64,000 nucleotides of DNA from a virus: IMG/VR virus record IMGVR_UViG_3300020123_000589, positions 64,001 through 128,000 of that record; one strand, given 5' to 3'. This document shows, in pieces, positions 48,311 to 48,881 of the stretch (its first letter is position 1; each line of letters opens with the position of its first letter). Below the pieces are notes generated by a model. It was not told where the DNA came from and did not search any database. It saw nothing but the letters and a program-made list of their open reading frames with translations. A program made the position numbers and the translations under genes.

Positions 48311-48517
48311 ATGACTGAAATACCTTGTAAGTGTGGACATAGTAGAGAGTTACATCCACAAAATGGAAAATTTCCGTTTATAGTTTGTGATGGGTGTTTT
48401 AAACGTAATCGTCCTAATGGTTTTCAACAAGTGAATTGTAAACAAGAATGTGTTAACTATATTCCAGACAATCTTATGTTTATTGAACAACTTGCCAAGG
48501 TGCGAGGTTTAGTATGA
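48311..48517 (+). CDS. small zinc-finger protein with C-terminal DNL motif
   Basis: CKCGH...H...CxxC...PDNLMFIEQLAKVRGLV. Confidence 0.65.
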   Translation: MTEIPCKCGHSRELHPQNGKFPFIVCDGCFKRNRPNGFQQVNCKQECVNYIPDNLMFIEQLAKVRGLV

Positions 48518-48699
48518 TTTGTTGGAGATGTGGGCATTCAGCTAAGGAACATGCTGAATTTTTACTACCAGGTAACAATGTTTATGGTTGCAAGGAATGC
48601 TGGCGTAGCCGTTCGAACAATAGTGAATTTTGTAAGCATGAATTTGAAGATAATTTAACATTTCTAGAACGCAAAGCGAAGGAACATAAACTGGCATGA
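48514..48699 (+). CDS. small zinc-finger protein with C-terminal DNL motif
   Basis: CWRCGH...H...CKEC...EDNLTFLERKAKEHKLA. Confidence 0.7.
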   Translation: MICWRCGHSAKEHAEFLLPGNNVYGCKECWRSRSNNSEFCKHEFEDNLTFLERKAKEHKLA

Positions 48700-48881
48700 C
48701 ATACCCTAAGTGCCTAACATGTGGGCATAAGAAAAGAAGTCATTTTAGTGGTACAACTAATCTTAACGCAGACTGCGTTGAATGTATGCCAGGAGTAGTT
48801 GACGATTTTTGTATGTATAAGTATGTTCCAGATAACTTAGGACATATTGAGAAGTTGGCTAAAACTAAAGGATTAATATGA
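48696..48881 (+). CDS. small zinc-finger protein with C-terminal DNL motif
   Basis: CLTCGH...H...CVEC...PDNLGHIEKLAKTKGLI. Confidence 0.7.
   Translation: MTYPKCLTCGHKKRSHFSGTTNLNADCVECMPGVVDDFCMYKYVPDNLGHIEKLAKTKGLI

Follow-up and report, generated by a model that had tools for sequence, protein, structure and literature searches.

The ssrA tag is a two-part signal read by SspB plus ClpX. In the poxvirus ankyrin/PRANC and viral F-box-like families, many paralogues with variable bodies share a constant C-terminal element that docks on one machine, and in phages T4 and T7 several different replication and transcription proteins attach to a common hub by C-terminal tails that bind the clamp or the polymerase. 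The C-terminus of MuA is the ClpX C-motif-2 degron (CILEQNRRKKAI; PMC12723719). The T4 internal proteins IPI-IPIII and Alt share a short capsid targeting peptide, which is removed by gp21 (PMC9026906), and Bacillus phage G carries a lineage-specific expansion of ~35 zinc ribbons, for which a role in DNA binding or as transcription factors has been suggested (Iyer et al. 2021, PMC7824862). Shared degrons, the T4 capsid targeting sequence, the viral F-box-like adaptors, and the phage G zinc-ribbon expansion are the closest printed ideas to the feature described here, a short C-terminal consensus (D-N-L-x-Y-I-E-x-L-A...) on small proteins with unrelated bodies; a full-text search of the literature found no description of this C-terminal tag. 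The T4 and T7 tails differ from it in being unstructured and either acidic or hydrophobic; only a few DNA-handling enzymes carry them, and they have no consensus in common with it.

The whole virus record (G000) comprises 151,359 bp with a CheckV completeness of 79% and is classed as a provirus in IMG/VR. The + strand holds nearly all of its genes, which include tRNAs, a large block of virion genes, and genes for replication, recombination, and nucleotide metabolism, and neither megablast nor tblastn matched it to any of 50,697 GenBank phage records. The window, that is to say, the whole stretch of 64,000 nucleotides analysed, corresponds to bases 64001-128000 of G000. It contains eight tagged ORFs (window positions):

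7328-7627, + strand: class B tagged ORF of 99 aa with a small barrel, a helix, and the tail (FDNLTYIEILGKLI, then stop)
48311-48517, + strand: class A Cys/His mini-protein, 68 aa, tail DNLMFIEQLAKVRGLV and stop at 48467-48514
48514-48699, + strand: class A Cys/His mini-protein, 61 aa, tail DNLTFLERKAKEHKLA and stop at 48649-48696
48696-48881, + strand: class A Cys/His mini-protein, 61 aa, tail DNLGHIEKLAKTKGLI and stop at 48831-48878; structure modelled
49184-49447, + strand: atypical member, 87 aa, EKKGLI-DNLGVMELHYYRRKYGKLKKACILELK and stop, with the degenerate motif DNLGVME 27 residues before the stop
51863-52060, + strand: class A Cys/His mini-protein, 65 aa, TTG start, tail DNLSYVETLAKERKLI and stop at 52010-52057
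53530-54222, + strand: 230-aa Cys-rich, largely helical protein, variant tail PTLDYIEAVAEARGLVK and stop at 54169-54219
62862-63164, + strand: class B tagged ORF, 100 aa, predicted Tudor/SH3-like barrel, tail helix at residues 80-98 (IDNLTYIELLAWTKEYAEQRTRI, then stop)

All eight ORFs and the endings quoted for them in an earlier note on this DNA were recovered at the same window positions, except that the start given as 53581 is an internal Met of ORF 53530-54222, whose protein and tail are otherwise as described. The note had counted eight otherwise different proteins; their bodies are indeed unrelated between types, but the count is too high, as the eight comprise 4 class A paralogues, 2 class B members, and 2 singular proteins, that is to say, four body types. 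The first ORF (7328-7627) sits between tRNA-Ala and an RNA island 3' of the capsid gene, and its tail is kept in the orthologues P0193, P0194, and P0198. The next ORF (48311-48517) has an alternative start at 48248, which would give 89 aa; its stop overlaps the start of the following ORF (ATGA), as does that of ORF 48514-48699, which has an orthologue in the sister phage G002. The stop of ORF 51863-52060 overlaps the start of a phosphoesterase-like ORF (52057-52722). In the atypical ORF 49184-49447, the tail-end-like EKKGLI lies directly before the degenerate DNLGVME, after which comes a 20-residue extension (YGKLKKACILELK) that is identical in the orthologue of phage G006 (48% identity), which ends NNLEMVELLGWRKKYGKLKKACILELK; this ORF may contain a fused or duplicated tag with a changed role.

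The pattern DNLxx[ILMV]E matched 38 times in the six frames of the 151-kb G000, always on the + strand and inside an ORF, and in almost all cases a stop codon followed 13-24 residues past the match. Residue shuffles gave a mean of 0.25 matches (maximum 3) and codon shuffles a mean of 0.4; the observed count is about 100 times background, which disposes of the concern, raised in the earlier note, that shuffled controls might yield the motif as often. With the near variants NNL, PNL, and PTL added, the tag set comprises ~40 ORFs among ~250 G000 genes, or about one in six (~16%). The feature is real, strong, and much larger than first noted.

The synonymous variation of the motif codons was also confirmed. 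The invariant Leu is encoded by five codons (CTT 14, TTA 10, CTC 7, CTG 5, and TTG 5), with 0.04 bit of information at the third codon position, and the codons of the tag D, N, I, and E residues alternate too. Because synonymous codons vary freely, selection acts on the peptide and not on the DNA. Tails on unrelated bodies have 54% of their bases in common, and 44% of the codons at identical residues are identical. No near-identical pair of tails was found on unrelated bodies, so there is no sign that gene conversion or the joining of cassettes has recently affected the tail. A DNA-level element (promoter, terminator, or recombination cassette) or gene conversion is ruled out by the synonymous variation together with the lack of near-identical tails on unrelated bodies.

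The tagged bodies were grouped as follows: (i) class A, a single family of 24 G000 proteins including those at window 48311, 48514, 48696, and 51863 (alignment A1), has the frame C-x(1,2)-C-G-H-x4-H ... C-x2-C ... [H/C]-x-F-K-L-DNLxxIExLAKxRGLI followed by the stop; (ii) class B, with the window ORFs at 7328 and 62862 and about eight more in the genome (alignments A2/A4), consists of a small barrel, a helix, and a tail [ILVF]DNLxYIExLxxLKxY... of variable length; and (iii) the other bodies include proteins of 146 and 178 aa, the 230-aa Cys-rich protein, and two helical families with the ending DNLDIIEE(A/T)AKKKGLI. A two-pass membrane protein carries the tag in a sister phage, and the N-terminal parts of 113 tagged ORFs from G000 and sister contigs fell into 60 BLAST clusters. 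The class A mini-proteins probably bind zinc. Their abundance resembles the situation in phage G, where dozens of small Cys-rich paralogues likewise occur in one large phage; no shared tail has been described for the phage G zinc ribbons, whereas the tail here is also found on proteins without the Cys/His frame.

Searches for known families returned little. No Pfam family scored above the curated cut-offs for the tagged proteins, in 19 proteins that were tagged or neighbours of tagged ones no Pfam family at E <= 1 extends over the tail, the best PHROGs E-value for tagged proteins was 0.0036, and neither PHROGs nor Pfam has a model for class A. One class A member had no tblastn match at E <= 1 in the 50,697 GenBank phage records. 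By contrast with these curated sets, a class A profile search of 1.84 billion representatives returned 873 clusters (50% identity) at E <= 0.001, of which 70 reached E <= 1e-10, and of the 164 retrieved class A metagenomic proteins that carry the motif, 147 have their C-terminus exactly 16 residues past the Asp. Likenesses to a p97 VIM-like helix, to the C-terminal peptide of FtsZ (as mimicry), to one half of a SAP/HeH motif, to the T4 L/I-x-E cut site, and to an N-glycosylation sequon were considered by eye and dropped, as none had profile support; for the sequon, Ser/Thr stands at position 4 in only about a third of the tails.

As the tail is a fixed part of the class A family, half of the eight window cases show inheritance and not portability; the case for a portable tag comes from the many unrelated bodies only. 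No orthologue without the tag was found, the apparent cases having slightly variant tags, and it is therefore the non-homologous bodies that speak for portability. When the genome was compared with L007, a 99-kb Logan contig with 25 tagged ORFs in the 20 kb examined, the larger untagged genes were syntenic and many tagged genes were replaced, novel, or moved. The tag core is better conserved than the bodies, with identities of 0.79 versus 0.40 in 23 homologue pairs.

The structures of one member of each class were predicted with AlphaFold2. The class A model (window 48696-48878, 140-sequence alignment) had a mean pLDDT of 73.8; its sole helix (residues 48-57) lies in the tail, and the block of residues 51-60 reached a pLDDT of 93, the highest of the protein. 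This fold had no match in the PDB, and the ESM Atlas returned only unnamed viral clusters for it. The class B model (window 62862-63161, 39 sequences; pLDDT 82.7, pTM 0.70) comprises five strands, a helix (residues 55-68), and the tail helix (residues 80-98). Its barrel is similar to Tudor/KOW/PWWP domains, the best matches being the RNA-polymerase-binding C-terminal Tudor domains of UvrD/PcrA (Z 5.6-5.8, RMSD of 1.5 Å over 47 residues); the match is weak, and at such scores the Tudor likeness is a lead only. The bodies thus compared have no single common fold of which the motif could be an integral part. The tag is predicted to be a helix in both families, as had been proposed, but the amphipathicity claimed for it was not supported, since the hydrophobic moment of tail residues 3-14 (0.26) does not exceed that of shuffles (0.31).

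Because the class A tail is invariant within its family and the class B model is compact, the predicted helix may lie against its own domain instead of a partner. The main rival to recognition by a partner is a purely structural or self-pairing helix, that is, a self-contained structural or oligomerisation element, short and well capped, which would close small domains or pair with its own copies and would have been inherited in a few expanded families, occasionally shuffled onto other genes, and without a common external reader. The single class A family with its fixed tail, the compact class B model, and the lack of tag-less orthologues all suit such an element, and the consensus itself can be read as a helix-stabilising design (Asp-Asn N-cap, Glu7-Lys11 pair, and Gly14 C-cap). 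Internal packing in different folds, however, should not hold the polar residues D1, N2, and E7 invariant, nor should it give a genome-wide choice of I or L at one position and the joint switching of orthologues described below. We consider this explanation a minority possibility that deserves to be taken seriously.

The distribution of the tag among related phages was examined with a DNA pattern of the motif. It matched 40 times forward and 1 time reverse in the sister G001 (IMG/VR, 117 kb), 32 and 2 times in the sister G002 (IMG/VR, 142 kb), 6 and 0 times in G005 (a 61-kb fragment), and 43 and 1 times in G006 (a complete 192-kb genome with terminal repeats); a control DNA pattern gave 0 matches in G001 and in G002. 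Tag-free relatives also exist, namely the four complete phages G007-G010, which share some genes with G000 and have 0-1 motif matches each. One of them, G007 (193 kb), has 88 proteins in common with G000, and the class A bodies are absent from it too. Unbiased clustering of C-terminal 26-mers gave the same picture, the largest cluster containing 44 genes in G000, 51 in G006, and 3-4 in G007-G010. Between the tagged genomes and the four complete relatives, the tag is an all-or-none trait.

The tagged lineages write the motif in different dialects. Tag position 6 is I/V in 34/37 tails of G000, 27/28 of G001, and 20/21 of G002, versus 3/42 of G006 (G000 vs G006, p = 2e-15), where it is Leu in 38/42. 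In G000, G001, and G002, D/T/S predominate at position 4, Ala stands at position 10, and the majority of tails have exactly 16 residues, whereas in G006 position 4 is taken by E/K/R, the tail lacks the distal LAKxRGLI, and its length ranges from 11 to 27. Tails of exactly 16 residues number 22/37 in G000 and 5/42 in G006, and 20 of the 22 in G000 end in two aliphatic residues. Orthologues switch as well: the 230-aa protein (53530-54222) ends PTLDYIEAVAEARGLVK in G000 and DTLQYLEALSAAKEAAEAQVVA in G006 (60% identity over 209 aa), the 146-aa protein has NNLDIIETEAKGKGLI in G000 and DNLKYLEKKVEWESK... in G006 (40% identity), and several class A orthologue pairs change from the G000 to the G006 dialect in the same way. 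Lineage-specific expansion of paralogues can explain part of the dialect difference but not the orthologue pairs. Since orthologues and unrelated proteins change dialect in concert with the genome, these sequences point to one shared reader; a concerted dialect across the genome would be hard to obtain from internal packing in different folds.

From the unrelated bodies and the dialects, we take the motif to be a portable recognition helix at the C-terminus, peculiar to one phage lineage and read by a single partner, a reading that we hold with about even confidence. In such a mechanism, Asp-Asn would start the helix, and Leu3, the aromatic residue 5, Ile/Val6, the invariant Glu7, Leu9, and Ala10 would form a conserved core of ~10 residues that docks on one common putative reader protein of the phage or the host. 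The ~40 tagged small proteins would be handled as one set despite their variable bodies, either as clients that are cleared or placed together or as adaptors that bring the target of each body to one machine. The G000 lineage has an extra layer, in which the last six residues, K-x-(R/K)-(G/N/K)-L-(I/V)-COOH, stand at a fixed distance from the core, and the codons for these residues frequently supply the ribosome-binding site and the start codon of the gene that follows.

The coupling to the next gene can be counted. Four-base stop/start overlaps (ATGA, GTGA, or TTGA) occur in 21/37 tagged versus 28/189 untagged genes of G000, in 15/28, 16/21, and 17/42 tagged genes of G001, G002, and G006, respectively, and in 15-25% of the untagged genes across the four tagged genomes; TGA is the stop codon of 23/37 tagged versus 39/189 untagged G000 genes. 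The G000 ending (K/R)-G-L-(I/V)-stop reads A(A/G)(A/G)-GGN-YTN-(A/G)TA-TGA, which is a ribosome-binding site plus the next ATG, the (K/R)-G codons giving AGG/AGAGG-type sites 7-9 bases upstream of that ATG. One could suppose that the ending, as nascent peptide or as codons, favours termination-reinitiation at the start that overlaps it and that the protein motif is secondary, and both the excess of overlaps in four genomes and the placement of the ribosome-binding sites would agree with this. Such a role does not account for the core DNLxYIE, whose synonymous sites vary and which is encoded 30-45 bases 5' of the stop, nor for the core-to-stop distance in G006, which varies from 11 to 27 residues, and we regard it as highly improbable. 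Because the tail is kept where the next gene does not overlap (e.g., G000:15697 and 27379) and the overlap excess persists in G006, whose distal tail is not conserved, the coupling is an added layer and not the cause of the motif.

A packaging signal, which had been among the roles proposed at the outset, would mean that the tagged microproteins are packed in the head and delivered with the DNA, with [YL]-[IL]-E as a protease cut site. In T4, the capsid targeting sequence is likewise a short portable peptide common to diverse small phage proteins with one destination, and gp21 cuts at L/I-x-E (PMC9026906). In addition, a tagged gene (G000:32865-33122) lies directly 3' of the ClpP-like head protease gene, and the tagged ORF 7328-7627 is near the capsid gene. 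The T4 signal, however, is N-terminal and has few carriers, whereas the tag is C-terminal in all members and has ~40 carriers, whose genes lie mostly in arrays alongside genes for nucleotide metabolism and replication rather than in the head module; a set of forty cargo species would have no precedent. Delivery with the DNA is therefore very unlikely in our judgment.

In the search for a reader of the tag, the following genes of the phage were considered (positions in G000 unless the window is named):

window 59551-60168, + strand: phage ClpP (PF00574, 232 bits)
32204-32860: second ClpP-like protein, head maturation protease in PHROGs
30415-31176: M50 peptidase, flanked by tagged genes
135880-137265 (outside the window; L005:9880-11262): single-ring AAA ATPase, 461 aa, Cdc48/VAT/AFG2 D2-like (PDB AFG2/Cdc48, E = 1e-43)
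18364-18831 and 23070-23567 (L001, L002): two tag-array genes, 155 aa and 165 aa

The tag-bearing G000, G002, and G006 encode ClpP and the tag-free G007-G010 do not, and the only close relatives of this ClpP in IMG/VR are those of G002 and G006. It is the most conserved of the 98 proteins common to G000 and G006 (87.5% identity versus a median of 45%), exceeding even the best-conserved virion-block proteins (81-86%), which suggests strong external constraint or recent acquisition. In all, 20 G000 genes show this phyletic profile, with counterparts in G002 and G006 but none in G007-G010; of these, 6 are tagged and 14 untagged, the latter including ClpP, the head protease, a BT1 transporter, MazG, and the two tag-array genes. 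As this profile is in effect one evolutionary contrast (G007), the association of ClpP with the tag is a lead and not a test. ClpP can be named, by inference only, as a candidate component of the tag-reading machine, and a Clp-type proteolytic or unfolding machine built around it is our preferred but unproven class of partner. The lineage dialects, the switching of orthologues between them, the complete tag-free relatives, the tracking of tags by ClpP (in a small sample), and the overlap of tail and ribosome-binding site are new in this analysis.

A role as a degron for a Clp protease had been suggested from the start, and the comparison with known degrons is mixed. The MuA degron and ssrA are short movable C-terminal peptides, as is the tag, and this phage carries its own ClpP. 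The MuA C-motif-2 has a basic stretch followed by a small or hydrophobic last pair (RRKKAI), and the G000 tail K-x-(R/K)-(G/N/K)-L-(I/V) looks similar to it by eye. The layout could also match the two-part ssrA tag, with an upstream part for an adaptor and a terminus for the ATPase. On the other hand, the tag has no sequence homology to known degrons, its DNLxYIE core has no counterpart in them, and it is predicted to be helical whereas degrons are unstructured. The distal basic/hydrophobic part is missing from class B tails and from the G006 dialect, so that G006 has ClpP without the degron-like distal tail.

The other candidates are less specific. No ClpX-type ATPase was found in the phage, as judged by the lack of an AAA_2 match. 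The AAA ATPase, which has a 190-residue N-domain with only a weak BCS1_N/AAA_assoc lead (score 0.76), is found in each of the large tagged contigs, but the tag-free G007-G010 also encode homologues of full length (32-41% identity), and it was rejected as a tag-specific reader; it could nevertheless be necessary for reading tags. Its gene stands between the Mre11-like and Rad50-like genes, and other large phages, with 84-193 kb, encode full-length homologues of the protein (32-48% identity). The 155-aa and 165-aa tag-array genes are kept in all tagged genomes, including G006 (26% and 37% identity, respectively), and are absent from the tag-free relatives; their products have no Pfam, PHROG, or PDB match. 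A tagged gene lies directly upstream of the gene for the 253-aa M50 (site-2 type) peptidase in both G000 (G000:30113-31176) and L007 (L007:18843-20079), each with a four-base overlap, and in L007 a second tagged gene lies directly 3' of it.

A bolder form of the recognition-helix reading is that the tagged microproteins are an adaptor library, in which each variable body, through Cys/His mini-protein loops or a Tudor-like barrel, would bind a different host or defence target and the helix would plug all of them into the ClpP-based machine under phage control; we consider this unlikely. Its architecture would be that of the F-box/PRANC families, in which many paralogues combine a variable binder with a constant C-terminal docking element, as do class A, class B, and the 60 clusters here. 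In those families the docking element is a domain, whereas here it comprises 10-16 residues without homology to it or a Pfam match at E <= 1, and the host is a bacterium. If true, many host proteins would be removed or remodelled by one route, a counterpart in bacterial viruses of F-box/PRANC adaptors or of engineered degraders.

If one reader handles ~16% of the genes of this phage by means of a ten-residue helix, that helix would open up dozens of 'hypothetical' early genes together; a single bait could find the reader, and a single mutation could switch off the set. The dialect difference between lineages would serve as a built-in specificity test, and the tag could be used as a portable handle in phage engineering. 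The analysis also adds a large Cys/His microprotein family, common in metagenomes (the 873 clusters above), that is absent from curated libraries.

Further occurrences of the motif or of motif-like stretches were noted. A 185-aa protein (G000:12757-13314, L001) has the motif internally (LCGDNLTYVESLQNQKDF), 82 residues before the stop, where it opens a long predicted helical stretch, and may be a non-terminal context of the same element. The DNA-pattern scan of IMG/VR was filled mostly by an abundant, unrelated ~400-aa family of viral contigs (loci L008-L117, e.g., L009:10896-10928), whose internal PAVGADNLAxIEALAKNQQAI matches the back-translated tag by chance, and it also turned up a 143-aa family with an internal CGDNLWHIETLAKRNL. 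Just past the end of the window, the tail-coding part of a class A gene (DNLDYIEKKKKKRGLVK, then stop) contains a run of ~16 A's (G000:128668-128686; L005:2668-2686), a possible slippage-prone tract.
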